Notes: a model not told the origin generated them from the letters alone. A stretch of DNA of 64,000 bases from Eledone cirrhosa (GCA_964016885.1 OZ024752.1:9114001-9178000); one strand, 5' to 3'; shown: positions 6,758 through 60,385, counted from the stretch's first letter. Numbers and translations: made by a program.

Positions 6758-8139
<1,382 letters not shown>

Positions 8140-9353: not shown

Positions 9354-9540
9354 TCAACCTTTAAATGTTCTGATCAAAATATTTGGATCTGTAGCTAAAT
9401 CAATAACTGCTGCAGTCTGTTGCTCAACAGTAAGATGTTTCTGTGGAAGTGTATACCAAATATTGTCTTCAGCACCAAAAATAGTTGAAGTTACATGTTC
9501 CAAGTCACCATTTATATGTGAATTCAGAGGTATTTCATCA
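9354..9540 (-). CDS. Candidate terminal coding exon of the Ig receptor gene (DEIPLNSHINGDLEHVTSTIFGAEDNIWYTLPQKHLTVEQQTAAVIDLATDPNILIRTFKG*)
   Basis: Acceptor ttttatttaaag; 61 open codons after a phase-2 start in AT-rich DNA; TGA at 9356-9354; AATAAA on the minus strand at 9249-9244. The upstream phase link is unresolved. Confidence 0.55.
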
Positions 9541-11399
9541 CTTTAAATAAAATATTAAAAAGAGTAGACATTTCAAATATTGGCTATTTTCAATATTTTT
9601 GTCACCCACCAGTTGTATAAATAACATTACAAATTGTTTATAATTCTTTACAGAATGAAAATATAAATAAATACAATTAATATACAAAGCATATAAATAA
9701 ATTTACAGTAGAATAACATAACAAATATGTTTTAAATATATACATGAATAACACTACAAATGCTTAAATAACATTATAAATTGCTTGCAATTCTTTCAGA
9801 AGGATATATTCCTTTAATGTTGCAATATTAAAGAAAATGTAAAGGAAGGGGTGAACAACCGAGCCAACACTAGAGCAAAAGACAGCAGCGTCGCGAGGAG
9901 TACCGGGAAACCTCTCTAATGATTTCTGAGGCAAGCCAGCACCCTTGCAGTGTTGTCTCGGGTGATGGTGAGGTTGATGCACTGGAACAACCAAGCGCCC
10001 TTGCGAGAATCACAAGAGAAATCGGAATGTAAGTTTATTTTACATAAACATACTGTATATGGGTCCGTGCTAAGCAATTCTGAAATATTTGAAATAATGA
10101 AAAATAATAAAAATCCGATCTACTTGCAACAATTTTTCTGAAGCGAAAACCCATATCAACATAGGCCAAATCTTCAACTCGGTCTCAAGATTTCAACCCT
10201 AAGCCAAAAATGTAAAGAAGCAGTTGACTTAAGAAATTACCGATTCTATGAAAGTCTGACACACGATGGAAGCAAAGAAAAATGGAAAAGAAACAACTTT
10301 GTGAAAGAAGTTAGTTTGAAAAGTATTGAAGTCCAAAAAGATGTCAAACTTGATATCGATGAAGGAAATTTGCTTGCATCAGATCCCAATCCTCTTGAGT
10401 TAAAAAGATTAAGGTTAGTTTATAATGAATGTTTTTATCTCAAACATTTACCACTTGGCTTTCTAACATATTCGGAAGGCTTTTGATTATCGATCTTCTC
10501 CATTGTGAATTAGCTCTTCTCGATACCATGTGCCCTGCCAAAAATGACAAATCATACCCTATCGTCTGAATAACAAACTCAGTGGATAACGCAGTCAGGA
10601 TAGTCAAAACTGGAATGGCTTTCATCGTAAGGTTTTATTGAAGCTGACAAAACGTTAAACAAAAGCAGAGGTCTGTTTACATAAACATCATCACACAAAC
10701 TGCTAGAAATAGCAGATAAATCGCACATTACATATTTGAATGTTTGACTAAAATATCATTGTAATCGAATCATTCAAACATTATCTGATTGAGCACTCAA
10801 TACTAGTGGGTAGAGTTTAAATTTTCTTGTATTTGTACACACACAAGCCGACGAGGGAATCCTAAATATAACGTGCATAATCCGGTGAATCGCACGAGAT
10901 ATTTTCGTTCCCTTATTTCCTATTAATTTAACATTCAATCAGTCAACACAAGCCAAATATTCAACTGACACAGGACATAAGCTAATAATAATGATTAATG
11001 ACAATAATCTTTAAATTTATTGCAAATTCACCCATGTGGAATCTCACACACTCACACAGGTTCTCATTTTACTGCAGTCTTGCCCATGTGGAATTTTACA
11101 CAAACTCACAATTTCTGATTTTACTGCGTATTTACCCATGCAAAATATTACACAAACTCACAGCCTTAGAATTTGTACTTCTAACCTTTTTATTTTCCTT
11201 CTTTTTGCATGTTCTTCCACTGTATTTACCTGCCTCTCACATGACCACACTTATCTCCACGCACTAATAATCTTCTCCCCCTTCACCACTTTCTATCACT
11301 CCCTCTGCTCACCTCTCACTTTGTCCTCTTGCACAGCCCACCTATGTCTTCGTTCAACCCGTTGGTGGCCCGATGTTTCGATCGAACTATCACCGGCGA

Positions 11400-12190
11400 T
11401 TGCCGATTGATAAAGTTGCCTCCACCTTAACCTAATCCACTCTAGGTGGTGGAGGCATGCGTTGAATGACCAAGAGACCTGCTTGGTGGAACGACTATGT
11501 TACAACAGGTCAGCCTTCGACCTCTCATTTTACACCAGCTTCATGACGCACGAGAAGAGCTAACTTGTCTCCACTTACCCCCTCCTCCCCTTCACTGCAG
11601 ATTCCAAGCGAATTCAACCCTGCCAACTCCACCACCCCTACAACTGTTAGCCCACCACCCAACCTCCGCTCTAGCCCCACCGTTAGAACCATTGCTGCCT
11701 CTTTTACTGACTCACTCCCTCCACCAAATTCCAATGCTGGCCCTCTACTGCTGGCTGCTGCCAACCCATCACCTCACTGCACTAGCCGGTACTTAAAGAC
11801 TATCAAACGTCACCTATGCCACGTAAGCTACCACAGAAGCTGTGTCGGCATCACCAAGGCTCAAGCCGAAAAGCTTCAATACTGGACCTGTGATCGGTGC
11901 CACTTCAGCTACGACGTATTCCATGGAGATGCCCCATGCTTCGATGACCAACTCTCTACTGAGGACTTTGCCACACCCCTCCAGGGTTTCTCCAAATCAA
12001 AGCTCATCAACTGGGTCCCTGAGGGAGCACGGAATAGCTTTGCACATGCCCTCTCTCCTTATTGGTTGGTGACGCCGGACTCAAGCTCTTGGAGTGTCTG
12101 ACTCAGTTTGCGAATCAGTTCTCTTTAGTGAACCTTCTCCTCTATATCCGCCCACTGTTCTTCAAGGCAGGGGAACTCGAGAGATTGCCC
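11400..12190 (+). mobile_element. Non-LTR retrotransposon 5' remnant with PHD-like finger (possibly CRE-like)
   Basis: GC-richer island; ORF 11565..12101 has YHRSCVG...WTCDRC (PHD C-terminal half) and WVPEGAR, resembling the IPKGAR motif of CRE-like elements. Confidence 0.5.
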
Positions 12191-12296
12191 ACGCATAGAC
12201 TTGTTTATGCTAAAAAGGAGGTAACCCAGAATTTGACTGTTAAATGTCACCCAGAGGTCAAGGTGGGGACAGATTTCGCTACATATGTGTACATAC

Positions 12297-12385
12297 TTCA
12301 TGTAAAAGTATATATGGTAATTTTACTTCAATTCCTTTAACAGTTAAGAGCAGCGTTATTGTTTTTTTTTCCCCAAGTATTTCTG
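12297..12385 (-). CDS. Candidate cytoplasmic exon (AEILGEKKTITLLLTVKGIEVKLPYILLHE) with ITIM-like LPYILL
   Basis: Acceptor aatattcag, donor GTATGT; open only in the phase-1 frame continuing from exon 13600-13635. Confidence 0.5.
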
Positions 12386-12416
12386 CTGAATATTCAATTA
12401 ATAATAAATAATTTAT

Positions 12417-12763
12417 AGTAATTTTATACCACACCACCTCAGTAACTATAGATTACCAAGTAATTTCATACTACACCACCTCAATAACTATAGTTTACCA
12501 AGTAATTTCATACTACACCACCTCAGTAACTATAGTTTACCAAGTAATTTCATACCACACCACCTCAGTAACTATAGTTTACCAAGTAATTTCATACTAC
12601 ACCACCTCAGTAACTATAGTATACCAAGTAATTTCATACTACACCACCTCAGTAACTATAGTTTACCAAGTAATTTTATACCATACCATCTCAGTTACTA
12701 TAATATACCAAGTAATTTTATACTATACCAACTCAGTAACAATAGTTTATCAAGTAATTTCAT
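12417..12763. repeat. Minisatellite, 42-bp unit, ~8 copies
   Basis: agtaatttcatactacaccacctcagtaactatagtttacca repeated. Confidence 0.9.
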
Positions 12764-13599
12764 ATTTCCTTGGGTTGTGAGAGATGTATCACTTTTGTCA
12801 CACCAAATACCTTGTTGTTGTTTCATAACAACAAGGCCACTGGCCCTGACATGTATGATATAAAGTAGAAGGAAACTGTGCTTGAAAGGACCCATACAGC
12901 CCATGAAAGCATGAAAAAATAGATGTAAAAAGGTGATAATGATATATATATAAACCACATTTAATTTGGCTAAAATTATGTAATCTAAATAAACTCTGAA
13001 ATATTGATAATTTTCTCACTGAATTTGTTTAATTAAAATATTAAATATTAAGTATTTTGAAAAATACTTGTTTTTAAAAATCAAAAATATATGTTCTATT
13101 ATCTTCTAACATATCAGAACCTTCTGCTGTCCATCTTTCTTCATTCAAGCTATTAACAATTTACTGGTAAAAGATCAACAACCATTTACTTCTGCTTCTC
13201 GTCTTTTTCTTCTTCTTCAATGCTTCCATTAATTTAATCATATTTTCTGGATCCATCTCCTTGACTTCCATTTTTTATAATACATAATATATTTATTTTG
13301 TCATTTGATAGGATCCATTACTAATTTTTCTTGAGAAGAGATGATGTGGCAGATTCAAAGAAGAGAAAGCGAGAATGATTATGTAAGAGTATTAGAATAG
13401 GTTCTAAAGAAAGGTTGAAAGTTATGAAGTTAAAGTAAAGTTACAAAGTAATATACTTTGATATGACAATGTGATGGGCAAGTATACTTACGTGACTGAG
13501 TGAATTAGAAATAAATATTTATAAAATTAAATTATTATTCAACAAAAAAAAAAATGGGGAAAACAAAAGTTATAAGATAAATAAGTCTTTAAATAATAC

Positions 13600-13635
13600 C
13601 TACTTCCAAATAATCAAACGAATCATAGGTGTCAT
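13600..13635 (-). CDS. 36-nt micro-exon, DDTYDSFDYLEV
   Basis: Acceptor ttacaatttcag, donor GTATTA, phase 1-1, no stop. Confidence 0.75.
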   Translation of the reverse strand: MTPMIRLIIWK

Positions 13636-20625: not shown

Positions 20626-22177
20626 TACCTGGCATTCGTCGATCTTGAGAAAGCCTTTGAAAGAGTTCCACGTGCTGTAATGTGGTGGGCTCTTAGAAAA
20701 CTAGGAGTAGATGAAGGGCTTGTGAAAGCGGTACAGGCCATGTATAGGGGAGCAGTCAGCAAAGTTAGGATTAGCAATGAGTATAGCGAGGGATTTAGCG
20801 TACAGGTTGGGGTCAACCAGGGCTCTGTTCTTAGCCCCCTCCTGTTCATCATAGTCCTGCAGGCAATAACGGAGGAGTTTAAGACTGGATGCCCATGGGA
20901 ACTCCTGTATGCTGATGACCTCGCACTTATAGCTGAATCTATGGTAGAACTAGAGATGAAATTCCAAACTTGGAACCAGGGACTAGAAAGAAAGGGTCTC
21001 AAAGTCAACATGACAAAGACTAACGTCCTTGTAAGTAGACGAGATAACAGAGCCCAGATATCCTCAGGGAAATGGCCTTGCTCAGTATGTAGGAAAGGTG
21101 TATGTAGGAACTCCATTCTCTGCCCCAAATGCAAACAATGGGTACACAAGAGATGTAGCGGGATCTCAGGAAGCTTAATTAAGAATGTAGGCTTCACATG
21201 CAGCAGTTGTGCTGGGACAGCAAGCAGCAAACAGCCACAGGAAACAAGTACCACCAATATCTGGGAGGGCTCTGTAGAAACAGTAGACAGCTTCTGCTAC
21301 CTAGGTGACCGAATTAGCAGCGGAGGTGGGTGTTCAGAAAGTACAATAACTAAGGTAAGAACGGGATGGAAGAAGTTTAGGGAACTACTTCCACTGCTAG
21401 CTGCAAAAGGCTTCTCCTTCAAAATGAAAGGCAGACTGTATGATGCGTGTATCCGAACAGCGATGTTGCATGGTAGTGAGACCTGGGCGCTGAAGGTGGA
21501 AGACTTACGTAGATTAGAGAGAAACGAAGCCTGCATGCTCCGATGGATGTGTAATAGTAATATACGTGAACAACAAAGCATAAATGAATTGAGCGAGAGA
21601 CTGAGCATAAGAGGAATCAAATGCCGTGTGCAGGAGAGGCGGTTGCATTGGTATGGATATGTGATGCGTATGAAGGATGACAGCTGCATAAAAAGGTGCA
21701 GAGCACTAGAAGTCGATGGTAACCACGGAGTGGGGAGACCCAAGATGACCTGGGATGAGGTGATAAAAGCCGACCTTACCCAATTACACCTCTCAAAGGC
21801 GATGACACACGACTGTGAACTCTGGCGTCACGCAGTAATACAGAGTACCCGACCTCCCATGGGTACAAGCTGAAGCATATAGACAATATGCCCCCCCCCC
21901 CACTGCAAGTTGGTCGTGGAGGTGCCACGGCAAAAAAAGCACCCAGCCCACACTGTAAAGTGGATGTGTAGGCGCCACAAAAAAGCACCCAGCACTCACT
22001 GTAAATGAGGTTGGTGTTAGGAAGGGCATCCAGCTGTAGAAATCAAGCCAAAATCAGTTCTTGTATGAGCAAGGCATGGTCAGCCGACCAGACACTGCCC
22101 ACAACAGGACAACCCCTCTAACCTATGCTAGCCTGGAAGAACAGACGTAAAATGGTGATGATGATGATGATGATGAT
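20626..22177 (+). mobile_element. 5'-truncated RTE-clade LINE (RT, PHD-like finger, (GAT)n tail)
   Basis: FVDLEKAF, QGSVLSP, LYADD, LHGSETW motifs; (GAT)n 3' tail; empty site at ~39902-39913. Confidence 0.93.
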
Positions 22178-26012: not shown

Positions 26013-26048
26013 CTAGTTCCAAATAACCAATCGTATCATAGAACTCAT
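26013..26048 (-). CDS. 36-nt micro-exon, DEFYDTIGYLEL
   Basis: Acceptor taatatttcag, donor GTATTA, phase 1-1. Confidence 0.75.
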   Translation of the reverse strand: MSSMIRLVIWN

Positions 26049-31829: not shown

Positions 31830-31865
31830 CTAGTTCCAAATAATCAATCGTTTCATAGATGTGAT
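31830..31865 (-). CDS. 36-nt micro-exon, DHIYETIDYLEL
   Basis: Acceptor taatatttcag, donor GTATTA, phase 1-1. Confidence 0.75.
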   Translation of the reverse strand: MTSMKRLIIWN

Positions 31866-38114: not shown

Positions 38115-38150
38115 CTTGTTCCAAATAATCAATCGTTTCATAGAACTCAT
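38115..38150 (-). CDS. 36-nt micro-exon, DEFYETIDYLEQ
   Basis: Acceptor taatatttcag, donor GTATTA, phase 1-1. Confidence 0.75.
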
Positions 38151-41100
38151 CTGAAATATTAAGAATAAAAATATATATTATTGTATATTTTTTGAATTTC
38201 TTTTGAATATTGAAATTCCTTCAATGCGAAAATAATTAAATTTATGACTCAAAGTTAATAATATTATTTTTAATTTTAAGGGGCTTCTTAAAAAATAAAG
38301 TTGTTTGCAAGACAAATACATTCTAATCCTGAAGCACATATATGTTCCTCTTAAACAATATTTACATGTATGGTATAGAGATGCAATAAATTGTATTTTC
38401 TATTCTAAAGTATGACACACACACACACATATATATAGAATGTGTGTGTGTATGTGTGTGTGTGTGTGTGTGTTCTAAATAGAGAAAGAGTGAGGAGGGG
38501 TTGAGGTGAATGGAGGGTGACAAATAGACAAAAATATTTTCCAAGCCTAAAGAAGAAATCAGTTTGGTTATTCTTCCTCTTCTTATTATTATTAGTGGTT
38601 TGGCAGGATTGGTAGAGCAACAGACACCATGTTTTGCGGTATAGAGTTATGGCCCTTTACGTTCTGAGTTCAAATCCCGTCGAGGTTAACTTTGCCTTTC
38701 ATCCTTACAGGATGAATGGCACTGGGTAATTGCTGGCCTCGTGCCAAAAGTAGAAACAATTATTATTATTATTATTATTATTATTATCTACTTCTTTTTC
38801 TTCTTTTTCACCCACATCTCCCTGGGATGGTCATGGGAGCAAAGTCCTAAAGCATGCCTTTAATACTATTGGCTTGCAGTTAGAATATCTCAAGAAAGAA
38901 ACGCTGGACAGATTTTATGGGCAAACCAACCTTCTTCTTTGCTCACATATTTCTCAGAGAGTCATGGGGGAAGAGTTCTTAAACACTCCTTCGCGTGAGT
39001 CTGGTCAGAAGCAAGCATTTCCAACAAATCTGGCTGGATCTCCAAGCACCACCCACTATGTTCATGCATTTTATCCAACCATCTCACTCGGGGTCTACTC
39101 TGGATCTTGTGCTGGTTGGTTTTGCCTACAAAATATGTCCAGCAATTCTTTCTTGAGACATTCTAACATGCCCAAAGTATTGAAGCTGTGATCTCTCAAT
39201 CTAGAGAAATAACAGCTCTACCTGTAGTGCCTCTCTGATCTCTGAGCTATGCATTCTATTAAGTAACATTACTCAAAAGACCTTTCAGAGGAACCACATT
39301 TCGGCCCCTTGTTTTCACAATCGTATTCTTTTATCAGCAGAGCTGTTCTCCTAGAGAACAGGACCGCAGGTAGCAGATGGCGATAAGGTCACCAGAAACA
39401 ATGGTTAGTTGCAATATAATCTAGTAGCTGCCAGATGTACGAGCAAACCCGGACAAAGAGCGGTACATTACGAGGGGATATGAAGCAATGGCTGACACCT
39501 GTAGCTCACAAGAAAACTGTCACAACCCTGTGATGTAGATAGATATGATGAGGTGAGTAAAGACCACCTCTAAAAAAGACTAGTCTTGACGGGTTTGAGA
39601 AAATACCAGATTATTGACTGGCATGAATAAGACCACCAAAACTGCAATATGGTGAGAGCTAAGAAAAAGAATCATACTGCATTGTCTTTCACATTGAATA
39701 TCAAGGGATGTATTCAGGCCTTAGACAGTGGGGCATGTTCAAAGAATATATTAGTCTCCATTACATGCCGTGAAAACTGGTGATGTGTCTGCAACCTGTC
39801 CTGGGAGGAGTGGCATGGATGCACAAAGATTGTGTATCTCGAGACTCCAAAGAGTGATCAAAATTGAGCAAACATTGACTGTTTGGTATTTAATTTTTCA
39901 AATATATATATATGCATAGCCCAGAGATTAGAATAGCTACTTTTAGGGCCATTACTTCTCTGATAGTATGGACATGAGATCAGAATGTTAAAGTAAAGAA
40001 TCATACCACAGAATTTATAGGAAAAACCAACTGGCAGAACACCCAGTGGTAGACCCCACAAACAAGATGTTTGGATGAGATTCATGAGCTCAACTAGTAA
40101 TGCTTGGGGATCCAGCTGGATCAATTGAAAACATTTCCTTCTGACAGGATCCACTCGAAGGCATGCTTCAGGATTTGCCTCCATGACCCTCTCAGGAATA
40201 AGTTGAAGAAGAGGAAAATGAAGAAGAGAATTGAGAAGGTGATGGTGGTGGAGAGGAAGAAGAAGAAGAAGACGATTAGTTTGAGTCTCATTAGTTGTAT
40301 CTTAGAAAAAATTAATAGTAGGCTCAAAATAATACTCAACATTCCATATACACAACAAATACTTAGCCTTGAAATTCTCCAAGTGGTTAACTTATAGCTG
40401 TACTCCAGTAGTTCAGATAAAAAGAAAAATAATGCCTAGAATACCTGCAGAAAGTCACCTTTCTCCCAAAACTGTGCAGTGTTCTTCCAGCATCATAACT
40501 TTTGTAAATCTACTATTCAAAGTGTGAAGGGAGCCTCTCTATATAAAAGAGCTCTCAAAGCTTTCTAGCTTCCCAAACAGCATATAATTTGCCTGGTTTC
40601 TTGCTAAAATTATGGCTACCAATTTTTCAGAATTCTCATTTCCTCTACTCCTCAAACAATAGTTCTGTGAACAGCTCTCTCAAGGAGAAAGCCTTCACCT
40701 TTGCTGTCCACTTTTTATGCGACTCCACCCTACACATACATAGTGAATCTCCACTCTATCCCATATGAAACCCTGCCCTTCATTCATAAACACCAAATAC
40801 CATGTTGCTTTGTTTCATAACAACAAGGCCACTGGCCCTGACAATGAATATGTTTCCCTTGTTCACCCTGACATCCTAAACAACATCTAGAAAATAGCTA
40901 CTCTGCTATTCAATTTAAAGTCACTCATTGACACACTACAGCCTCAGATCCACAGACATGATGTCTTCCCTCTCTCTGTCTCTTATACCATTACTGCAAT
41001 GATCTCTTCTCCTTGAAACTTGCTAGTTTCTTACCACCTCAACACTTAATTCCCTTACCTCTCCTTGTTGTGTCCAGGCCTCACACTAACCACTACCCTC

Positions 41101-41915
41101 AGTCCTTCTTGCCCACAACATTTATATTATGGAACTCAACCTCTCTTCATGTCTTTTCAGATGGAGTGGACATGAACAATCTTAAACAAAACACCAATAG
41201 CATCAATCTCTTTGGTCCCTGAAGACCTGTTAAGGCCTTGGGCACTGAATTGAGAGGAAAATTTTGTATAAGAGGAATCAAATGGATGATGATCATTGAA
41301 GGAAGAAATGTTAAGAGAGACAAGTGGAAGAAAGATGCAGTAGAGGAAGACTGAAGAGGGCTTAGGTAGATTTGGAGTGATCTGATCTCAGCAGACTGAA
41401 GCTAAGAGAAAAGATTATGAATGTATGATATAAAGTAGAAAGAAACTGTGCTTGAAAGGTCCCATACAGCCCATGAAAGCATGAAAAAATAGATGTAAAA
41501 AGGAACTGACCAAAGGTCAACAATCTGTAGGGGGAGAGAGGAAGAAATACAAAGACAAAGTTGCTGTCATCCTGTGGAAATGGAACATTGCTCCTACAGG
41601 TGTGGAAACTCTTCCTGCAGATTGAAGCAGATGGCTAATCCTTTGACATCAAGCTTGCGAAATTATTGAGACAAAGTGTTGTCAATGGCTCAATGGATGT
41701 TGAGTGAAGTGTGGTGCAACCACTGCTAGATCACCTCCAACACCCAGCTAATTGATTACTTGACTGACTTGTGGGAAACTCTGCTACTGGGCTTTTGGTC
41801 TCTGCTCACATCAGAACTGAGGGAACTCCAAGCTAAGTTAATTTCACATTTAGAAAAATAACATCTAAATCATTTTCTAAATGTATGTATAAAAACGAAG
41901 AATATAGCCAAATAC

Positions 41916-41972
41916 CTTGCATTTCTAACTGTTGATTATGCCTGTCACCCACAGAGTCAATATTTTTAATTG
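41916..41972 (-). CDS. Juxtamembrane cytoplasmic exon (AIKNIDSVGDRHNQQLEMQ)
   Basis: Acceptor tttgtttttcag, donor AAG|GTATTT, 57 nt, phase 1-1, in unique sequence. Confidence 0.7.
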
Positions 41973-42170
41973 CTGAAAAACAAATCAATAGAATATATTA
42001 ACTCAAATAGAAATGACAAAATTATGAAGAAACACTAAAGAAATTTCTTTTTAAATTAGCAACTCCTTTTTTTATCTTTCAGACGCTTCACCTTATTTCA
42101 TAATCTATTTTATAACATCTCTTCACATGGGCATGGTATACAACATGTGTTGGTATACATCAGATTGTGA

Positions 42171-42295
42171 AGGCGCATGGTTGAGTGGTTAGAGAATTGG
42201 ATTTGCAATCTTGAGATTGTGATTTTGATTCCCGGACCGGGCAATGCGTTATGTCCTTGGGCAAGACACTTTATTTCACGTTGCTCCTTCTGTCT
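42171..42295 (+). mobile_element. tRNA-derived SINE 5' part (second family)
   Basis: ggcgcatggttgagtggttagag ... gattcccggaccgggc ... ccttgggcaagacacttt. Confidence 0.6.
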
Positions 42296-42469
42296 GGAAC
42301 TGTGATCAACAGATAGTATTAGAAATTGGAAAGACCAATGGAAACATTGTTTCTTCAGTCCGATTTGACAAGCTCCACCCCACTCGTTAAGCAAATGAGG
42401 TCCGGGATCTTGTCGATACATCAGACAGGATTGTCAGTAGTATTTTGGCATCAGCATTGATAACATTTA

Positions 42470-43190
42470 TCATCATCATCATCGTTTAACGTCCATATTC
42501 CATGCTTGCATGGATTTGGACGGGAGTTTTCCCACTTGAAGCAAGAGTGGTTGTCTTGCTCGCATAGGACTGTCTGGCGGGTTTTCTACGGCTGGATGTC
42601 CTTCCTAACACCAACCACATTTACAGTGTGGAACTGGGAGGTTTTTACCGTGTTACCTACACGGCCACATTACAGCGTGAACTGTGTGTTTTTTTGTCGT
42701 GACACCTACACGACCTCATTTGTTTCGGGCTGGATGTTGTGGTACCAAGATAACTTTACATTGAAAGGGGTGGTGTGGGGGTAGTGTGATGGGGTGTATT
42801 TTGTTAGAGGTGCTTTGTATTTAGGTAAGGCGGGTCTTCTCTATTACTGTGTAGCGCCAAAGATCTTGGTCCAGTGACATTGTCTTGGAGAGGTGTAAGT
42901 GTGTGAGGTTGGAATTTATCAAGTCGTCCCAGGTTTTTCTGGGTCTGCCTACTCCATGACTACCGTCTATTTTTATTGCCCTGCACTTTTTTTATACAGC
43001 TGTCGTCTTTCATGCGCATCACGTGACCATACCAACGTAGCCTTCTCTCGAGTAAACAACATCTGATCCCTCTTATTTCTAATTTTTCCCTTAGTTCGTT
43101 TATGCTTTGCCGTTCATGTATATTACTATTACACATCCAGCGGAGCATGCAAGCTTCGTTCCTCTCTAGTCTGCATATATCCTCTGCACA
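42470..43190 (-). mobile_element. RTE LINE 3' end
   Basis: RLERNEACMLRW...RLRWYGHV; (CAT)n tail on the plus strand at ~42470. Confidence 0.88.
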
Positions 43191-44071
43191 CAGCCTGGGA
43201 ATTGAACTCACGATCTCATGATTGTGAATCCAACTCCCTAGACACTAAGCCACAAGAATTGTGTGAAGACTTGTGCAGCTTTTGAGTTGAAATATGTAAT
43301 ATTTGGATCAAACTTTGATGTAGCATTACGATGTGTCAGTGGGCAAATGCCTGCTATACATGTCATAGTTTATCCACCTGTGATTATGCGTTCCTTGTTT
43401 GAAACTCTTTTTGAGAAATTAGAAATGAGATTTTTAAGTTTATGGTCTAGGGCCTGGCTGGAAGGAACGATTGGCACCTGCTTGGGAAAATCATAGCCTT
43501 GTACAGGGCAGGTTATGACTGAGAATGGTGGTGGTAGTAGTGACGATTGTGGTGGTGGTAGTGGTGATGATTGTTGTGGTGGTAGTGGTGGTGGTAGTGG
43601 TGATGATTGTGGTGATGATGATGACAGCAAAAATGGCATTAATAAGTTCTTCTCATTTGATGAGATGTTTCTACTTTATCCTATGTAGAGTTACAACTTG
43701 TGGCTTCTAGCCAATATATTAAAGTTTCAAACCTGATACTCTAGCACTAAGCAGACTGGGGCATATAACCACTTATCTCAATTTGTCAAACATGAGCTTG
43801 TTGAAATGTGTGTGTGTGCCTATATATAATTTTACATCTAGGCAGGTTGTCATGATATGAGATGAGACTGGTTGGGGAATCATGTGTTGCTCATAGGTTC
43901 TATATTTTGGCATGGTTTCTCTGGTTGAGTGCCCTTTCTAATGCCAACTACTTTAAAGGGAGTATTGAGTGCTTTTATCATCACATCAGCATTTTCACTT
44001 TACAAGGTTCAATGGGTGCACTTCATCATGACACCCACAATATCACTCATCATGACACCCACAATACCACT

Positions 44072-47028
44072 GGGTAACGGAAACTGTCCACTATTTCTAT
44101 AGAACCATCTGTGCAATTGAAAGAGCTAGTATTCTGTGGGCACTTGCTGCTACTTATTGCACAAGAGCACCGGCCACATATGAAATCTATGTTCTTAGTT
44201 AGCTTACCTGTGATCCCACTACATCTTTTATGCACCCATACTTTGCATTTGGGACATAAAATGGAGTTTCTACCTACTCCTTTCCTACACACTGAGCATG
44301 GCCATTTCCCAGAAGGGACCGGCGCCTCATTTTCTTTCCTACAAACTAGAACTTTAGTCTTAACCAGGTTAATTTTAAGGCCTTTTTATTCTAGGCCATG
44401 CTTCCATGTTTGGAATTTCTTCTCTAGTTCGGCCATTGATTCAGCTATGAGCGTTAGATCATCTGCGTATAGGAGTTCCCATGGGCAGCCGATCTTGAAC
44501 ACCACTGTTATAGCCTGAAGGGCAATAATAAATAGTAGGGGGCTAAGAACGGACCCCTGATGAACACCAACTTTTAAGCTAAACTCTTCACTATATTCGT
44601 TGTTAATTCTAACCTTGCTGACTGTTTCTTTATACATGGCTTGTATAGCTCTCACAAGCCATTCATCAACACCTAGTTTTCTAAGAGCCCACCAGATAAT
44701 GGAACGGGGGACTCTGTCGAAGGCTTTCTCCAAGTCGACAAAAGCTAAGTATAGGGGTTTACTTTTAGCTAGGTACTTCTCCTGTAGTTGTCGTACAATG
44801 AAAAGAGCGTCTGTGGTACTTTTGCCTGAGAATTGATCTAGATGAAAAGCACAAACTGCATTCCATCTAGATCAATTCTCTCTCTGATTAGTTGCACTAT
44901 TACTTTTTCTGTGACCTTCATGACCTGGTCGATTAATTTAATGCCTCTATAGTTACTCCTATCTAGGGCATCTCCTTTACCCTTGTAGCAGTTAATGATG
45001 ATGCTGCGACGCCAGTCCTTTGGAACAACCCCATTCTGTATGACTTGGTTTACTATCCGGGTGACCATGGTGTGTCCCACCGTTCCAGAAGCTTTCAGCA
45101 TTTCAGCAACTATTTCCGAAGGCCCAGCCGCCTTACCCGTCTTCATATCTTTGATTGCCTTACTTATTATACTACCTTCGACTAACACTGCTGGTCCCTT
45201 TATTGGGTCAATGTGGGGGAGACTGTCTTTCTCCCATTTATTCTCCTCATTTAGTAGCCTTTCGTAGTGACACTTCCAAGCTACCTTCTTATCAGCGTCA
45301 GTGATGGCAAGTACACCATCATCATTAAGTACACACTTCTCCCCGACAATATCATGGTTTTCCTTGACATATTGCCTATCAATCCTGAACACCTCACGTT
45401 TTTGGTCCTCGCGTTGTAGAACACGCTTGAACTTTCTTTCCTCTGCTTCCCTTCTTGCAAAGTACACTTGTCTCCTAGCTTCCCTCCTGGCCACTTGATA
45501 GTCTTCTCTACTTCCCCCATCCCGCCATACTTTCCAAGCCTGCTTTTTGGCCTTAATTGACTCCTCCACCACCATGTTATTCTTCTCCTGCCTATAGGCC
45601 TGCTCCAGCTACAGCCTTTGTCTGCCGCCATCAGCAGGTTTGCTTTCAGGAATTCCCACTGTTCCTCTATATTGTACGACTCTAAATGCTCTTCCTTACT
45701 GTCGAAAGCATCAAGTAATATGCTTTGAAATTTATTTCTGGCTGTGGGGTCCTTTAGCTTCCATATTTTTCTCCTGAGGATAGTCCTCTTCTGCTGTCGA
45801 GTACGTCTCGCCCTGACTATAAGGTCGCTAATTATCAGTCTATGTTGGGAGGTGCATTCTTCATGGGGGGGGGGGGGATTTAGTGTTTACAACAGACACT
45901 CTGTCACGTCTCCTGGTAAGGATATAATCTACCTGGCTGGTATGTTCCCCTGATCTGTAGGTGATCAAGTGATTGTCTTGTTTTTTGAAGTTAGTGTTAC
46001 AGATAGTTAGGTTATTTGCGTCACAGAATTCCAGGATTCTGGAGCCTTCCCCATTTCTAGTACCAAACCCATAGCCTCCGTGGATTCCATCATAGCCGTC
46101 ACAATGTTGTCCAACGTGACCATTTAGGTCGCCAGCAATAATTATATAGTCACTGTCGGTTATTTGGAAGGTAGTGAGCATCAGTGTCTCATAGAAACTG
46201 TCTTTTATAGCGCCAGGCAATCCGATTGGGGCGCGTACGCAGATATTACCGTCACAGTAGTTCTATTTAGAACAAGTCTTATTTTAATTATTCTGTCATT
46301 CACTCTATTTACGTCTATTATCTTATCCACCCATTTTTCTGCTAACATGATTCCTACCCCACCCAGCCCATTGTCATTTCCCACCCAGAAAAGCTTATAG
46401 CATCGTTTTTTACCCACAATGAATCTAGTATCTCTTGGATACAGCAAACATCAACCTCTTTACGTTCAAGCATTTCTACAACCTCGTTAGAGCGGCCTTT
46501 TAAGGTGCCTACATTCATGGTACCAACTCTGAAGTTTTGGATTGCGTTTGGTGAGTGGGGCGCAGGGAGGGGTGAGGGGGATGGAGTTGGGGTTATGTTG
46601 GCCATCTGCGGCCGCAACAAAGAGGAGAGGGCCTTGCCCTTTCATCCGGCAGCATGAGGTGAATTTGTCGTTATCTTTGGCATTGTCTTCAAGTGTCCAG
46701 ATTCTTCAGACTCTCCAGAAATTCCTTAGTCCATCCATCATTTCGAAAAGCAACCAGAAGTGATAGCATAGGCCGTTGACTTGTGATTGGTTCAAATAAT
46801 AAAGGTGGAGAGTGGGGGCGGGAGGGAGGAGTATAGGGTAGTTAGCGAGGAGCAGGCTTATTTATATTTGGTGCGAGTAGGGAGAGAGAGAGAGATTGAG
46901 AGAGCTACGTATATGATAGAGAGAGTGGGGGTGATAGCGATTTTAGAGGACCGAGAGAGAGAGAAGCCATTTTTATGAATCCTGGAAAAATTTTCGGCCA
47001 AAATGGTAGCGAGAAGATTATTTAGAAC
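44072..47028 (-). mobile_element. RTE LINE 5' part with AP endonuclease and RT, degraded
   Basis: TMNVGTL...VCCIQE, IIAGDLNGHVG, SQVDYIL (APE), NYRGIKL, LYADD; 5' end abuts (TA)n. Confidence 0.92.
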
Positions 47029-47223
47029 TTATATATATATATATATATATAATAATAGTAATAATTACAATTATATATAGAATTATAAATAAGATAAGGG
47101 TAATATTGTATATTAGCTGATTACCAGTAAGATAATTAGCTCAATATAAATACTCAATATAATTAGCTCAATATAAAAACTCTAGATGCAGCTTGCCTCA
47201 GTTGAAGCACAGCCTTTCTTTAA

Positions 47224-47489
47224 CCCTTTAGCATTTACATTACTTTATATATACTATTGTATTTTCATGGTAAAGGCTTTATCTCACATAACATTTACAT
47301 TACTTTTTATTTACTATTGTATTTTCATGGTAAAGGCTTTATTTCACATAATATAGACTATGGGATTTTGATGTTATTTATTTTGAGAACAATACCTTAA
47401 AGTCTGTATAAGGAGATAGTTACGGCTGGTTTGAACAGAAAGAGGTGAGGGAATTCTGGCTGGATATAGCCAGTTTAAATGCTAAAGGG
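47224..47489. mobile_element. piggyBac-like MITE
   Basis: TIR CCCTTTAGCATTTA...TAAATGCTAAAGGG, TTAA on both sides. Confidence 0.85.
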
Positions 47490-47626
47490 TTAAAGTGCAA
47501 AAGTGCTAGCAAGCAAATCACTAATTAAACATACTGAATTACATAAGATAAAGTTAATCTCTTAAAGTTAACCTCATATGTTAAACTCTATTTTTCAAGT
47601 CAATAGCAAATAAATATTTCATATAT

Positions 47627-47646
47627 TTACATATCTTTTTTGATAG
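47627..47646 (-). CDS. Candidate alternative exon after the TM exon (AIKKDM*, or a 16-nt phase 1-2 exon ending at 47631)
   Basis: Strong acceptor ttttatttttttcag; possible donor GTAAAT. Confidence 0.35.
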
Positions 47647-47889
47647 CTGAAAAAAATAAAATAAAATATGGAAGATATCTTTCAATATAAACAGTTATAA
47701 CAGGAATAATACTTTCTATTATTGCCGAAGCGCTGAAAAGTTTCAGAATCTGAGAGGGGGAATATGTTGAATAAAATTTATAATTAACTGATCCTCCTGT
47801 ATTTTCTTTTAACTGATCTTCTTGCATTTTCTTTTGCCCAAAGCCAGAAACTTTTCTGCACCCCGGTATAAGGGTTTCTGATTAAGGCA

Positions 47890-48085
47890 CAGACTAACAA
47901 TTTTCAGGGACGGGAAAGTCGATTAAATCCATCTCAACATGTTACTGGTACTTTATTTTACTGAGCTCATAAGTATGAAAGGCAAAGCTAACCATGGCAG
48001 GATTTGAACTTAGAATGTGAAGGGCCATAACTATATGCCACAAAGCATTTTGTCTGATGTTCTACTGATTCTGCCAATCCTTTTC
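47890..48085 (-). mobile_element. tRNA-derived SINE, diverged copy
   Basis: Similar to 6290-6476 (gtactttatttta...aaggcaaag..aacc...gatttgaact). Confidence 0.6.
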
Positions 48086-48206
48086 TATTATTATAATAAG
48101 AATAATACTTTTCTCCACACATGTAAATATCATTTTTCACAATATAAATAAAGTACTTATATACATCTGTTGTGATCATCATTATGCAACAATATATAAT
48201 ATAGAG

Positions 48207-48451
48207 CAGACATGAGAAACATGCAGCCCGTGGGCCACATGCAGCCCTTTACAAGCACACCAGCAGCCTGCACAAAGGTTTTTACAGTGCGAGCGTAATA
48301 TAAAATAAAAAAATATTAGTTGTCATGTGTGCAATTAGTTGTCGTGTATGCAATTAGTTGTCGTGTGTGCAATTAGTTGTCATGTGTGGCCCTCAGACAA
48401 CACACATGGGACCCATGTGACCCTCGGGAGACCCTCAGTTTGACATGTCTG
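48207..48451. mobile_element. hAT-like MITE with 8-bp TSD
   Basis: TIR CAGACATG..AAAC / GTTT..CATGTCTG; TSD ATATAGAG at 48199-48206 and 48452-48459; internal 20-bp repeats. Confidence 0.85.
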
Positions 48452-48632
48452 ATATAGAGGGGTCACTTTAGACCTGACAGACAATATAGAGGGGTCACTT
48501 TAGACCTGACAGACAATATAGAAGGGTCACTTTAGACTTGACAGGCAATCCCTCTAGTGCTTAGAGTATGATAAAATGTATACAATCCATGCTGGTGATA
48601 GAAAACTCATGCTAAAACTATGAACAGTACAT

Positions 48633-48990
48633 ATCATCATCATCATCATCATCATTTTACGTCCGCTTTTTCCTGCTTGGAAGGGTGGGATGGGTCCTCT
48701 TCAGCCCAGCATCTCTCCATATGTCACGGTCCTTCGTCATCTCCTTTGTGAGCTTCAACGATCTGAGGTCAGCTCTCACCACCTCCGCCCATGTCTTCCC
48801 AGGTCTTCCCCTAGTGCATCTTCCTTCCACTGGGATCACCTGGCACTGCCACTTCTTCACCCAGTGGTCATCCCTCATGCGCATCAAATGGCTATACCAA
48901 CACAGTCTTCTCTCCTACACACTACAGTTTATTTCTTTTATACACAGTTTCTGTCTCACTTCATTCATGCTTGGTCTTTCATGCACATTG
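48633..48990 (-). mobile_element. RTE 3' fragment (family of 56553-59008)
   Basis: GRPGKTWAEVVRADL...KRT; (CAT)n tail. Confidence 0.85.
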
Positions 48991-50029
48991 TTACATATAT
49001 AGTAACAATTCCTAGCTGTGTATACAGAGCTAACAAAATCAATGTTTGTCCTGTACATGGTAGTGGGATGGTTAAGTTGAAATATCTAGCCATATATGAC
49101 AATCCCTTAGCCATTATCAAATCATTAAAAACTTCTTACTATGTACAGAAATCAAGTCAAAAGATGATTCAATGATGTGCAAAAATGAGATGGAGGAGAG
49201 CTTCAACCAGATTCCCTCATAAGCAAAGAGATAAGTGGGAGAGCACACTATTAACAGAAATAGAGAGGTAATGTATTTAAAATAGATATCTTTCTTTATT
49301 TGCCACAGGGGTGTACAAAAATGGGACATTACAAGACGTGACGGTGGGGGTTTTACATAAAATCTTTAACAATGATCAATAACAAACTATATAAAAATAA
49401 AACAATTGAAATCCCCTTTAGGGTGGGGTAGGGGGCGGGCGACGCTACTGCGGGGTTGTTTTACACCTCGTGGATAGAACAACCCTCAACACCAGGAACA
49501 CGTTTTGTAGGTGTTCCCGTCTTCCCTCTGTTTAATGTATTTAAGTTAGATAGTGGTTGCAACAGAATTATTAGGCCTAGACTAGTCATTGGCATTATAA
49601 CAACTATTGCTATTTCAATCTACTATATCATAATCAGGACTGATTAATGAATAAAAGAATCTTTTCTATGAGAACCTCCCTTGAAGACTATCTCCATAAC
49701 AAGTGACTGCGGCTACATTATTATGGCTGGTGACTTTAAGGGACATGTTAGGAAGTACCAGGATGGCTATTCTGGAGTAATTGGTGATGAATATGGCTCA
49801 AGATGGACTGGGCACTTTTTGCTGTGTCACCATCATGACCACTTTACAGCGTGGGCTGGGCACTTTTTGTTGTGTTGCCATCACGACCACTTTACAGTGT
49901 GGGCTGGGCACTTTGTGTCAACAACAACAACACCACCACCACCACCACCACCACCATCACCACTGTATTACAAAGGTATTTATGTCAAGATAATTGATAA
50001 AGCTTTAAAATATGTAAAAATATACCAAC

Positions 50030-50134
50030 CTCTTATCCGGTGGCATCTATAAATAAGAATTCCCAAAATTATTAACAATATTACCATTGCTACAGTACAA
50101 CCAATAATTAGTTTCAAATGATTTTCTGTTTTTA
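50030..50134 (-). CDS. Transmembrane exon (KTENHLKLIIGCTVAMVILLIILGILIYRCHRIR)
   Basis: Acceptor atattttcag, donor G|GTTGGT, 105 nt, phase 1-1; ~21 hydrophobic residues followed by basic stop-transfer residues. Confidence 0.8.
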
Positions 50135-52070
50135 CTGAAAATATATATAAAATAAACCAAACATCATCAAACAAGAAAAATAATTAAAGTAAGGATTATG
50201 ATGAATCATTCACTAGTCATAATTTGTCTAATATTTTGCAAAGTTCAGTGGTGTATTGGTAGGGGTGCATGGTAGTGCAGCTGCACACCCCCAAAAATTG
50301 TTGTCTGAAAATTATGAATGTCTGTTAGGAGAATACACTTATGGCAAGGTTAGTATATGCATTGGTATGAGTTGGACAATCTTTTATATGTCTCAAACCT
50401 GTATCATCTTTTCTTTAAGTCACAATCTTTTAAAATCATGTTTGAATATTTCCTTTTCTTTAACCAGTCTAGTGTCAGACTCGTCAAATTCTTGCCAGCT
50501 TGTAAAGCAAATATATGATGGTGATGATGATGATTATCTTCATAACATTGTTTCATTTTGTTACAAATTAGTCATCTTCAGGATGGAGTGGTTGGGAGGA
50601 CTCTTTAGTCCCATCAGGGATATGATAATCTCTGTAGTGCTGCTACCATAATACACTACATAAAATGGTTGGTGTTGAGAAGGGCATCAGGTCATAGAAA
50701 ACTTGCCAATTATCCTTATTATTGGAACTTTCCACTGTAAACTCATTATCACAATGTCATTTCTTTCTACTTATATTCTTGATTACAATTAATGTATCAA
50801 TATAAGAAATAACTTTTTATAAACTTTTATTGAATCTTACTGAATGAATATTGTTGAAGGTCTTAAAGTTTTTATGGTCGAATCTGTCAAAAAATTATGA
50901 CAAATGTTCTGGAGACTACATGATTAAAAGTCAACATGAAATTTGCAGTTTGTTCAAATCCAAAAATAACTGGATCTTTTGACATTTTGCATAGTGATAA
51001 ATTTCAGTTTATCAACCAGAATATATTTTAATAATTATGGTCTAGACCAAGAATGAAGAAACCTTCACATGTATTCAAATTTGTAACTGCCTAATGTCAA
51101 AGTCTCTTAAATCACATATGAACAAAATCAGTTTAATCCTTAAGACTAAAACATCATCATCTTCATCATTATCATCATTTTATGTCTGTTGTATCAATAT
51201 AATAATCTTTAAGAGCATAAATTTTTAACAAGAAGACACAGTCAACTCCTGTACTTGGTATTTACTTTTATTTACTATATAGGGGGATGGATTGTCAGGA
51301 TCGGTAGGGCATCAGACAATTTGGGCAATCTACAGGTGCAATCTACAGATGCAAGCTCAGAGCAGGTCTTTTCACTCGGAGTATGTTCGCCACTCTCACC
51401 CACCTTTCAAAAAACTCGTTTAAAAGTCACTCTCCACCCTGATTTTCCTCATCAAGGGAAACCTGTAAAAGTTAATCAGGGCTTCACCAAAGAAGAAAGT
51501 GCTTGTCTTCAATCCTTTTAAATGTGTCCACCACATGACATCATATGTCATGGCCACCACACAGATAAAAACTGCCTGTCTTTCCTGGTTAAAGGAAGGC
51601 AGCAGGGTGATCAACATTAATACAATTTAAAAGAGTACAGATCCCAATTAGACTAAGTTTTGCAATGTTCATCAACAAATCTTAGAGACAGACATTATCA
51701 GTAACTGGTTTGCAATTAGAGGAGCTTTGCTTCTCTCATGAACAATTGTATGTTGGATGCTCGTGTATTAGTAGTTCAAAAAATCTTTTAATTTATACTC
51801 CATTGGGAAAAACTCAATGTATATAAAGAAATTTTGTCATAATTTTCTTTTGTACATTTCTATTTCAAGTTTATTATTGTTGTTAATCTGCTATCTAGGG
51901 GAAGAGGGTGCTTGGAGAGCATAATAGCTAGAATAAGAATAGGATGGAAAAAGTTTAGAGAGCTACTCCCACTGTTGACAACAAAATGTTTCTCTCTATG
52001 TATGATGCCTGTGTGCAAAGTGCAACACTGCATGGTAGTGAAACATGGGTTGTAACTGGAGAGAAATGAA

Positions 52071-53633
52071 GTGAGTGCTGCGTGCTTTTTTGTGGCGCCT
52101 ACACGTTCACTTTACAGTGTGGGCTGGGTGCTTTTTTTGCCATGGCACCTCCACGACCACCTTACAGTGGGGGGTGTGGGGGCATATTGTCTATATGCTT
52201 CAGCTTGTACCCATGGGAGGTCGGGTACTCTGTATTACTGCGTGACGCCAGAGTTCACGGTCGTGTGTCATTGCCTTTGAGAGGTGTAATTGGGTAAGGT
52301 CGGCTTTTATCACCTCATGCCAGGTCATCTTGGGTCTCCCCACTCCGCGGTTTCCATCGACTTCTAGTGCTCTGCACCTTTTTATGCAGCTGTCATCCTT
52401 CATACGCATCATATGTCCATACCAGCGCAACCACCTCTCCTGCACACAGCATTTGATTCCTCTTATGCTCAGTCTCTCTCTCAATTCATTCATGCTTTGT
52501 CGTTCACGTATATTACTGTTATACATCCATCGGAGCATGCAGGCCTCGTTTCTCTCTAATCTACGTAAGTCTTCCACCTTCAGCGCCCAGGTCTCACTAC
52601 CATGCAACATTGCTGTTCGGATACACGCATCATACAGTCTGCCTTTCATTCTGAGGGAGAAACCTTTTGCAGCTAGCAGTGGTAGTAGTTCCCTAAACTT
52701 CTTCCATTCCATTCTTACCCTAGTTATTGTACTTTCTGAACACCCACCTCCGCTGCTAATTCGGTCACCTAGGTAGCAGAAGCTGTCTACTGTTTCTACA
52801 GAGCCCTCCCATAGATTGGTGGTACTTGTTTCCTGTGGCTGTTTGCTGCTTGCTGTCTCAGCACAGCTGCTGCATGTGAAGCCTACATTCTTAATTAAGC
52901 TTCCTGAGATCCCGCTACATCTCTTGTGTACCCATTGTTTGCATTTGGGGCAGAGAATGGAGTTCCTACCTACACTTTTCCTACATACTGAGCAAGGCCA
53001 TTTCCCTGAGGGGATCTGGGTTCTGTTTTCTTGTCTACTTACAAGGACCTTAGTCTTTGTCATGTTGACTTTGAGACCCTTTCTTTCTAGTCCCTGCTTC
53101 CAAGCTTGGAATTTATTCTCTAGTTCTACCATAGATTCAGCTATGAGTGCGAGGTCATCAGCATACAGGAGTTCCCATGGGCATCCGGTCTTAAACTCCT
53201 CCATTATTGCCTGCAGGACTATGATGAACAGGAGGGGGCTAAGAACAGAGCCCTGGTGGACCCCAACCTGTACGCTAAATTCCTCGCTATACTCATTGCT
53301 AATTCTAACTTTGCTAACTGCTCCCCCTATACATGGCTGGTACCGCTTTCACAAGCCATTCATCTACTCCTAGTTTTCTAAGAGCCCACCAGATTACAGC
53401 ACGTGGAACTCTGTCAAAGGCTTTCTCAAGGTCGACAAATGCCAAGTAGAATGGCTTACTTTTAGCTAGGTACTTTTCCTGTAATTGCCTCACAAGGAAG
53501 AGGGCATCAGTGGTGCCTCTTCCTGGTACAAACCCAAATTGCATCTCGTCTATTTTCACCCGGTCCCTAATCAACTGTGCTATAACTCTTTCTGTTACTT
53601 TCATGACCTGGTCCATCAACTTCATATCTCTAT
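52071..53633 (-). mobile_element. RTE LINE fragment
   Basis: ORFs 52200..53204 and 53314..53658 carry RT motifs. Confidence 0.92.
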
Positions 53634-53639
53634 AGTTTA

Positions 53640-54190
53640 AATATGTATTTAAAAACATACATATTTATCACACAAATATATATTTGTAAATATATATATA
53701 TTTCACATAAATATTCTAAATAAACCTATACATAATGTGGTAAATATATATTTAGTAAGAAAGATTTACTTCACATAAACATATATTTAGAAACACACAT
53801 ATATTTCACATAAACATATATTTCACTTAAATATATAACGAGAAATATTCATATATTTCACATAAACATATATTTTTCATAAATATATATTTAGTAGAAA
53901 CATACATATATATTTCACAAACATATTTTACATAAATATATATTTAGAAACATATATATATATTTCAACAAACATATATTTCACATAAATATATTTTTAG
54001 AAACATACATATATATTTCACACAAACATATATTTCCCATAAATATATATTTAGAAACATTCATATATATTTCATATAAATATATATTTAGAAACATACA
54101 TATATATTTCACATAACCACATATTCATAAATATATAAGGACAAACATATATTTCACAAAAATAAATATTTAGAAACATACATATAAATA
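53640..54190. repeat. Degenerate AT-rich minisatellite (atatatttcacataaac / tttagaaac units)
   Basis: Visible recurring motifs. Confidence 0.75.
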
Positions 54191-54234
54191 TACCTAAACT
54201 TTATGCATTATACAAATAAAAATAGAAAACTTAC

Positions 54235-54561
54235 ATTTTATCTGTATCTGGAGTTTCTTTGAAGTTTGATTAAATTCGTTTTTATTTGGAACATATACCT
54301 CACATTGTAGTTCCTTAAAGTCCTTGCTGAGTGTTAATGTCAATGTTGAAGTCAAAGTAAACAGTTTCCCTTTTTCACTATATTTGTTAGTGTTAGAAAT
54401 ATATTTTGTAGGACGTTCTGTTCTCCCATTCTTGAATGTGATAATCCAAGAAGATAAAAATTTAGGGTTGATGTCTTTAACAAGACATTCGTAAGTTTTG
54501 TTCTGATTTTCTACAGGGTTCTTTTCAGAAGTTGGCCTTATTATCACCGATTTTGGCAAAA
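54235..54561 (-). CDS. Immunoglobulin-like domain exon (C1/C2-set-like) of a type I membrane receptor
   Basis: Acceptor atatttcag, donor GTAAGT, 327 nt, phase 1-1. Protein has YECLV..INP....W, TLTSTLTLT and LQCEV, i.e. B-strand Cys, C-strand Trp and F-strand Cys, plus N-glycosylation sequons NKT and NQT. Confidence 0.85.
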
Positions 54562-59008: not shown

Positions 59009-59027
59009 ACATACATATATAAATGTA

Positions 59028-60374: not shown

Positions 60375-60385
60375 AAATATATATA

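Follow-up and report, generated by a model that had tools for sequence, protein, structure and literature searches.

A young rearranged copy of an octopod eight-Ig receptor gene in Eledone cirrhosa, and its possible pairing with the parent receptor

A 64,000-nucleotide stretch of chromosome C12 of Eledone cirrhosa (C12:9114001-9178000 of a 3.0-Gb genome; GCA_964016885.1, OZ024752.1), hereafter the window, holds on its minus strand the 3' half of a receptor gene of the immunoglobulin (Ig) superfamily. This gene, denoted the window copy and including its part beyond the window, is one of three young paralogs in the genome, all located on C12; the other two are the parent (39.17-39.29 Mb) and a third paralog (5.39-5.44 Mb). 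The reading we favour, with about as much belief as doubt, is that the window copy is a young rearranged copy of an octopod gene for a receptor with eight Ig domains, and that it likely acts as a paired (decoy or activating) counter-receptor of the parent, with predicted V-type outer domains diversified in a presumed arms race with a fast-changing ligand. Positions without a chromosome prefix refer to the window.

Scripted joining of 17 exons from the window and the sequence upstream of it yields a single open frame, in which all internal sites are AG/GT. The chain starts with a signal-peptide exon (C12:9222589-9222655), followed, still beyond the window and on the same minus strand, by five exons for Ig domains of two kinds in the order D2 (C12:9211469-9211780), D1 (C12:9203014-9203292), D2 (C12:9199899-9200210), D1 (C12:9182574-9182852) and D2 (C12:9179520-9179831). 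The D1-D2 pair is repeated within the gene, and a stretch of 200 N (C12:9212578-9212777) occupies the expected place of a first D1. Within the window, the exon of a C1/C2-type Ig domain, D3 (54235-54561), is followed by a transmembrane (TM) exon (50030-50134), a juxtamembrane cytoplasmic exon of 57 nucleotides (nt; 41916-41972) and eight tyrosine micro-exons. The D3, TM and juxtamembrane exons and four tyrosine exons of 36 nt are in phase 1/1 with AG/GT ends. A preliminary description of this DNA had joined the first three without a stop and predicted that the signal peptide and further Ig exons lie past position 64000; both claims were borne out, the latter by one signal-peptide and five Ig exons. 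The presumed Ig fold of D3 was likewise supported by Pfam, where both C2-set_2 (E 2e-6; 28.2 bits, cut-off 21) and C1-set (E 1.1e-5) scored above threshold. Neighbouring sequence yielded the upstream exons, and elsewhere on C12 there are two paralogs. The signal peptide and the TM segment were assigned by eye and by homology. Because Octopus proteins match the D3 exon over its full length at 56-57% identity and a paralog has the same exon order, the exon chain is not a product of chance; by these sequence comparisons, the gene model is that of a real gene, larger than first described. Its assignment as a type I single-pass membrane protein of the Ig superfamily with a tyrosine-motif tail is supported by the homologs, the complete paralog and the V-type fold of D2.

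The tail is encoded by two types of micro-exons on the minus strand. The Y exons, 36 nt each, are located at 38115-38150 (YETI, YLEQ), 31830-31865 (YETI, IDYLEL), 26013-26048 (YDTI, IGYLEL) and 13600-13635 (YDSF, YLEV), the last of these being the final exon with support from the family. The N exons, 57 nt each, are located at 36992-37048 (DIYVN) and, with DIYVT in each case, at 30707-30763, 24897-24953 and 23553-23609. All four of the Y exons noticed originally are real, but the four N exons encoding DIYV(N/T) had been missed. The tail contains 12 repeat tyrosines and one YxN, a Grb2-type docking motif. Tandem duplications of intron-plus-exon units of ~6 kb, 96-99.5% identical to one another and spanning 12851-41247, multiplied the tyrosine exons.

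The parent consists of an intact signal peptide, D1-D8, TM, juxtamembrane, three Y and three N exons, and a terminal exon. Compared with the parent, 21.2 kb (C12:39256185 to 39277409) have been cleanly deleted, with the junction in the window at 51192-51194; this deletion removed the D4-D8 exons and is common to the window copy and the third paralog, which has three D1-D2 units, one N and one Y exon, and no D3. Among the copies, D2 is 81-94% identical and D3 is identical at 99 of 106 residues; the introns of the window copy are 96-99% identical to those of the third paralog and differ from those of the parent by ~4.6%. A variable-cassette model similar to that of clustered protocadherins was rejected because there is a single signal-peptide exon at each locus rather than one for every D1-D2 unit. 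No further family locus with D8 was detected in the genome (one strong match among 27 candidates).

The C-terminal 66 residues of the Argonauta family protein led to the terminal exon of the parent, which was the single, weak candidate of a genome search (E 5) and lies on the same strand, 55 kb below the last N exon of the parent. It encodes YAALDF and TIYASL followed by a stop, and in a local-region search aligns to the C-termini of the Octopus vulgaris and Argonauta proteins (E 1e-4 and 8e-4, respectively). These two motifs resemble a tyrosine-based inhibitory motif of immunoreceptors (ITIM; with Cys at -2) and an immunoreceptor tyrosine-based switch motif (ITSM; with Leu at +3), the latter graded against the ITSM consensus. 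A DNA search with the exon matched the genome at a single place, next to the parent, and therefore the window copy and the third paralog lack it; the homology of both to the parent stops ~30 kb before the parent's last three tail exons. Two more probable tail exons of the parent map to C12:39174929-39175645, one encoding LYAKVNKP, as in the O. vulgaris protein P0011, and the other a 107-nt exon of phase 1 to 0. The LYAKVNKP exon is absent from the examined stretches around the other two copies, and the parent chain stays open whichever of two weak phase-1 acceptors is used for this exon, or if the exon is skipped.

The parent belongs to a family that appears, on the protein searches made here, to be confined to octopods and uncharacterised. 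The D3 exon retrieved four O. sinensis proteins among 168 candidates, with 56-57% identity over the whole exon, and two further protein searches yielded 10 hits out of 2771 candidates and 16 out of 8000, with all named hits from Octopus. A HMMER search with O. sinensis D1-D2 against 1.84 billion representatives produced 16 hits, 13 of them named Octopus or Argonauta proteins, two unnamed and one, with the weakest E-value, a moth cystatin (P0026) that was dropped as false; none of these protein searches returned a member from squid, cuttlefish or other molluscs. The members include O. sinensis LOC115212114/116/246/249, O. bimaculoides LOC106879981 and LOC106874069, and Argonauta hians GAB1598814.1. 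Literature searches, which covered few subscription papers, found no paper on the family and none for six of the LOC identifiers; six LOC identifiers are absent from three of the four supplements of an octopus brain atlas (PMC9712504).

Full-length members comprise a signal peptide, eight Ig domains, a TM segment and a repeat tyrosine tail. By homology, the window copy matches the family order D1, D2, D3, TM and shares the short D1 and the V-type D2, with identities to the octopod members of 51-63% in D2 and 56-57% in D3. It differs from them in lacking D4-D8, in repeating D1-D2 and in its tail repeats, which are YETI/YLEL and DIYV(N/T) in the window copy and RYLxM and DxYVN in other octopod members. 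D1 is the most variable domain among the Octopus members (mean identity of 41%, compared to 74-80% for D2-D8) and is only 21-30% identical between this genome and Octopus, compared to ~42-61% for the other domains where present. In a D2 tree (midpoint root, long Argonauta branch), the seven copies of this genome fall apart from 15 Octopus rows with support of 95/88, a pattern that suggests separate expansions. The terminal motif pair is present in two of the ten family proteins tested, Argonauta P0021 and O. vulgaris P0011; the other eight end without it, and most have YxN/YxxM repeat tails.

Four Octopus models, P0006, P0012, P0016 and P0017, lack internal Ig domains (by eye, D5-D6, D3-D6, D5-D6 and D3, respectively), which suggests that domains have been deleted repeatedly or are spliced alternatively throughout the family. 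There is also a more distant octopod subfamily (P0020, P0022-P0025) with D1-D2-D1-like ectodomains, a TM segment and short tails, at 29-34% identity; a weak V-set exon of this kind is present at C1:171633792-171634049.

The outer domains change much faster than the DNA around them. Between the window copy and the third paralog, D1 differs at 11-12.5% of positions and its flanking introns at 1.2-2.4%, D2 at 4.8-8.3% and its introns at 0.7%, that is, D1-D2 diverge 5-10 times faster than their introns, whereas TM (1.0%) is on a par with its intron (0.9%). The Y exons within the window copy are 8-22% different, against 1.1-2.2% for the introns. Codon models, in our own MG94 implementation with inferred trees of 6-7 copies, gave omega values of 3.43 for D1 (p 4e-4 versus 1) and 4.13 for D2 (p 1e-3), and M2a was preferred over M1a in both (p 2e-9 and 2e-16, respectively). 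Tree-free minimum counts of nonsynonymous to synonymous changes (N:S) were 77:11 for D1 (p 0.012), 49:7 for D2 (p 0.057) and 126:18 pooled (p 0.002), 20:1 for the Y and N exons (p 0.023), and 22:6 for the signal peptide, D3, TM and juxtamembrane exons together (p 0.61).

In the predicted structure, D2 adopts a V-type fold (predicted local distance difference test, pLDDT, 77) closest to CD4 D1 (Z 13.4, root mean square deviation 1.8, 92 aligned residues), followed by CD48, CD58, B7, nectin and T cell receptor domains. All 12 D2 sites with posterior probability above 0.8 (11 of them above 0.95) map to strands C-C'' and F-G, which comprise 45 of the 103 residues (p 2e-5), and the same positions vary among the Octopus members. 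The fastest change falls on the predicted GFCC' face of a V-type D2, the face that binds ligands in the CEACAM, CD2 and nectin families. For D1, there is no Pfam Ig hit, and a profile comparison with D2 gives a probability of 2.7%; the O. sinensis D1 is predicted to fold confidently as an all-beta domain with a Cys-Trp-Cys pattern. A five-domain prediction of P0004 was poor (mean pLDDT 43), with D1 alone confident and Foldseek hits to generic Ig chains.

Under the favoured reading, the parent would bind a ligand on the GFCC' face and would dampen the cell via a phosphatase of the SHP2 type on the terminal motif pair. A microbe or a non-self cell would exploit this face, and the window copy would display up to three different D1-D2 modules catching the same ligand. 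Upon clustering, the 12 repeat tyrosines would become phosphorylated by a Src-type kinase and dock SH2 adaptors, with the terminal brake absent; the window copy may act as a decoy or signal through other SH2 partners. A broader version, in which we have somewhat less confidence, is that octopods evolved a paired Ig system independently of vertebrates, whereby a conserved ITIM/ITSM receptor repeatedly yields brakeless copies in each lineage, with shuffled ectodomains and amplified tyrosine micro-exons.

Several observations weigh against this reading. The tail of the window copy contains no tyrosine-based activation motif of immunoreceptors (ITAM; consensus Yxx[LI]x6-12Yxx[LI]), its TM helix has no charged residue and its Y exons keep two matches to the ITIM consensus (IDYLEL and IGYLEL), so the ITAM and charged TM of activating paired receptors are both missing and the activating sign is not established. 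The window copy has no secure last exon or stop codon, and some of the Octopus models that end without the motif pair may be incomplete at the C-terminus. The copies probably exchanged sequence, and conversion can inflate site tests on 6-7 copies; in a neutral control of three copies of an unrelated exon (the FATC copies described below), N:S was 10:1 (p 0.24), small counts being noisy. The two D1 copies inside the window gene differ at 2 of 279 nt, and its D2 copies alone give 21:4 (p 0.33). The face region was drawn after the D2 model had been seen, and the direction of the side chains was deduced from the alternation of the selected sites around the core Trp. No RNA run was listed for the Ig exon (four runs, one study), which is no evidence either way.

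Four public runs mapped over 37900-53600 cover introns; there was no exon-exon joint among those listed, which repeats swamp. Contigs from public runs match the TM region of the window copy letter for letter and contain other Y-exon variants at higher depth, although these runs may come from the assembled sample and hence not be independent.

Could the window copy simply be a truncated segmental duplicate, silent or weakly expressed, in which the divergence of D1 and D2 reflects selection on parent alleles or other copies transferred by conversion, such that it would at most be a sequence donor? The early end of the duplicated block, ~30 kb before the last three tail exons of the parent, the unclear last exon and the youth of the copy (introns 1-2% from the third paralog and ~4.6% from the parent) are in line with this possibility, as is synonymous change in D1 of 4-6%, which exceeds intron change as conversion would cause. 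However, the 17 exons and their splice sites are intact, whereas the adjoining remnant of a DNA-PKcs exon has a stop, and the D1-D2 and tyrosine-exon repeats stay in frame. Nonsynonymous change went on after the duplication, with N:S of 10:0 in the Y exons of the window copy and, in the third paralog, 15:1 in D1 and 17:1 in D2, where introns are 0-0.4% apart. By a rough estimate, neutrality since the split from the parent would predict ~2.9 (one copy per exon) to 5.7 (all exons, an upper bound) disabling lesions, and the probability of seeing none would be 0.055 to 0.004, so the open frames argue only moderately for function. We consider a silent duplicate unlikely.

To the same low degree, we credit the view that the family is a self/non-self or identity code, based on homophilic or host-partner binding, whether in allorecognition, in wiring as with DIP/Dpr or nectins, or in gamete recognition. 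The GFCC' face of V-type domains serves in homophilic binding as well, and the structural neighbours of D2 include nectins, ZIG-8, DIP/Dpr and CD2-family domains. Among invertebrates, the Hydractinia Alr genes combine hypervariability of domain 1, exon shuffling and ITAM/ITIM tails, according to the excerpted text of 10.1101/2022.03.04.482883. Against such a code, this genome has three loci only, and one conserved member with the motif pair alongside lineage-specific copies without it fits paired receptors better. The identity of D1 to Octopus D1, at 21-30%, is also low for wiring molecules, which are usually conserved between related genera.

Much less probable is an inhibitory receptor that ends via 12297-12385 (minus strand), with LPYILL as a working ITIM, as the preliminary description had it. 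This segment has a fair acceptor, the first good one with an open frame after the duplicated units, is in frame in the third paralog as well, and matches the ITIM consensus; reading through the last Y exon instead reaches a stop after three codons. In the parent, though, the homologous stretch lies inside an intron, is frameshifted and has a stop after nine codons, and a homolog on C28 (78%), between minisatellites, lacks the acceptor AG. The hydrophobic context of LPYILL is unlike the acidic motifs of the family, too. The proposed end of the tail is not supported, and LPYILL is probably a chance motif match in a stretch that belongs to an intron in the parent, although 12297-12385 could be a cryptic end in the window copy, a doubtful last exon. 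This segment was also tried as a DNA-PKcs exon, with no match in the examined part of the real gene. Two further motif look-alikes, DDVYVN at 10675-10692 (wrong phase) and one at C12:9073978 (within unrelated sequence), were taken as chance.

Nor does the receptor extend to position 9354, as had been claimed. By homology to the real gene (over 8685-9590), the sequence at 9339-9540 on the minus strand is a passenger remnant of the last exon of DNA-PKcs (PRKDC), a dead copy outside the receptor. Pfam FATC matches 9354-9540 (E 5.9e-5), the remnant has a Trp-to-stop change relative to the intact exon (C12:39300111-39300351), which reads to its end, and its phase-2 acceptor is incompatible with the phase-0 end of the 12297 segment. 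Searched against PDB sequences, the remnant has no match. There are six FATC matches above the cut-off in the genome, and the one at C12:39300129 ends a gene with DNA-PKcs CC5 exons at 39.36-39.38 Mb (10 matches). This intact gene (C12:39300111-39382500) lies on the same strand as the parent, and its end is 7.4 kb upstream of the signal-peptide exon of the latter. Broken copies of its last exon number four, at 9339-9540 in the window, C12:39221470, C12:5388332 and C28:14354715; of the three outside the window, one is inside the last large intron of the parent, one in the third paralog and one on C28.

An artefact of assembly, with uncollapsed haplotypes or misjoined repeats behind the extra copies or tandem units, is the least probable explanation of all, as the near-identical introns of loci 3.7 Mb apart and the 200-N stretch inside the window gene are offset by homology that is bounded (about -2900 to 119000 in window coordinates) with no N at its ends, by different exon content, by 11-12% difference in D1, and by the public-run contigs that match the TM region exactly and hold other Y variants at greater depth, even if these runs are perhaps not independent.

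Repeats crowd the locus. The segment at 4450-5954 is an inverted copy of DNA upstream of the signal-peptide exon, 91-98% identical to C12:39293480-39294489 and to the gene's own upstream DNA, and a further inverted block spans about -793 to 2532; the arrangement is possibly a relic of an earlier duplication. The first intron contains, at C12:9213662-9217493, gag/pol frames like those of a long terminal repeat retrotransposon, so labelled from the look of their translations, which are common to the third paralog and unmatched in the parent. Dispersed repeats with frames that we take to be reverse-transcriptase-like are found at 20626-22177, 27790-29338, 34088-35622, 52070-53637 and 57000-64000, three of them multiplied together with the tyrosine-exon units. 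Minisatellites with units of 37, 48, 4, 55 and 42 bases occupy 1469-3636, 6761-8139, 8328-8538 and 12417-12764, and the 42-base one adjoins the LPYILL segment both in the window and on C28.

Among known systems, the closest parallel to the favoured reading is provided by vertebrate paired receptors, in which an ITIM/ITSM-type member is accompanied by paralogs with near-identical ectodomains and other tails, with selected binding domains and lineage-specific expansion. The octopod paralogs similarly have similar ectodomains, and one member carries the motif pair that the others lack, the terminal exon being found at the parent only. SIRP alpha/beta and Siglec-5/14 are further parallels of this kind. 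For CEACAM1 and CEACAM3, the excerpted text of PMC5112662 describes ITIM/ITSM tails versus ITAM-like ones, ligand-binding domains that resemble each other, gene conversion and diversifying selection. The octopod copy differs from the vertebrate receptors in its tail, built from tandem micro-exons, and in that D1 and D2 are both variable and repeated within one gene. Its profile hits in PDB (CEACAM5, Robo, NEGR1, Dscam) are generic, with E of ~1e-5 to 4e-4, and do not imply orthology to CEACAM.

The likeness to SIRP, Siglec and Alr receptors that had been pointed out holds as an analogy, but the conserved ITIM-like/ITSM-like exon is absent from the window copy. SIRP has a different, V-C1-C1 architecture, and the family profile matched 10 PDB sequences, none of them a SIRP, a result compatible with distant kinship. 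In Siglecs, the V-set domain is N-terminal and has an invariant Arg on its F strand, whereas in the octopod family the V-type domain comes second and the position following the F-strand Cys is occupied by R, I, S, K, N or L across 17 rows. Nephrin and SYG-2 have eight Ig domains and one FN3 domain, with repeated tail tyrosines; the parent shares the eight Ig domains and the repeated tyrosines, but D8 directly precedes the TM segment in the parent, P0001 and P0021, FN3 is absent from the Pfam hits of P0001-P0004 and P0021, and the family evolves fast and was found in octopods only. Like Alr and Botryllus FcoR, the octopod proteins are lineage-restricted invertebrate receptors with variable outer domains and differing tyrosine-motif tails. 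In the text excerpts, Alr proteins are described as having one V-set and two I-set domains and an FN3-like spacer, encoded by 41 clustered genes (10.1101/2022.03.04.482883), and FcoR as relatives of the Sushi-domain fester proteins (PMC11507803). Compared by architecture, octopod receptors differ from Alr in having up to eight Ig domains, no FN3 hit and three dispersed loci. By the features tested, the family does not belong with Alr, Siglec or nephrin.

In molluscs, the oyster CgIgR (five Ig domains and an ITAM; PMC6994640) and CgIgIT2 are single-pass receptors with several Ig domains that bind bacteria on haemocytes and have ITAM or inhibitory tails, and in the excerpted texts they are not presented as a recently duplicated, positively selected pair (PMC6994640, PMC11999971). 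Four protein searches with octopod queries returned no bivalve proteins. A 2026 review of immune diversification, as excerpted, cites fibrinogen-related proteins (FREPs) for molluscs and mentions cephalopods for blood-cell formation alone (PMC13428168), and in a 2025 review of the invertebrate Ig superfamily, the words 'octopus' and 'cephalopod' are absent (PMC11999971).

These results bear on how cephalopods distinguish self from microbes with specificity. If the broader version, a paired system evolved independently in octopods, is true, a single gene copy would carry an array of different, positively selected D1-D2 modules, and the family would be the first diversified arms-race recognition receptor family in cephalopods within the literature searched, as well as a handle on the pathogen or non-self ligand. 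Named genes of the family are available in three Octopus species and in Argonauta, a dozen residues on a single face are predicted to make contacts, and a parent that carries the terminal motif pair contrasts clearly with copies that lack it. Such a system would represent another convergence on the ITIM-based paired-receptor design outside vertebrates.

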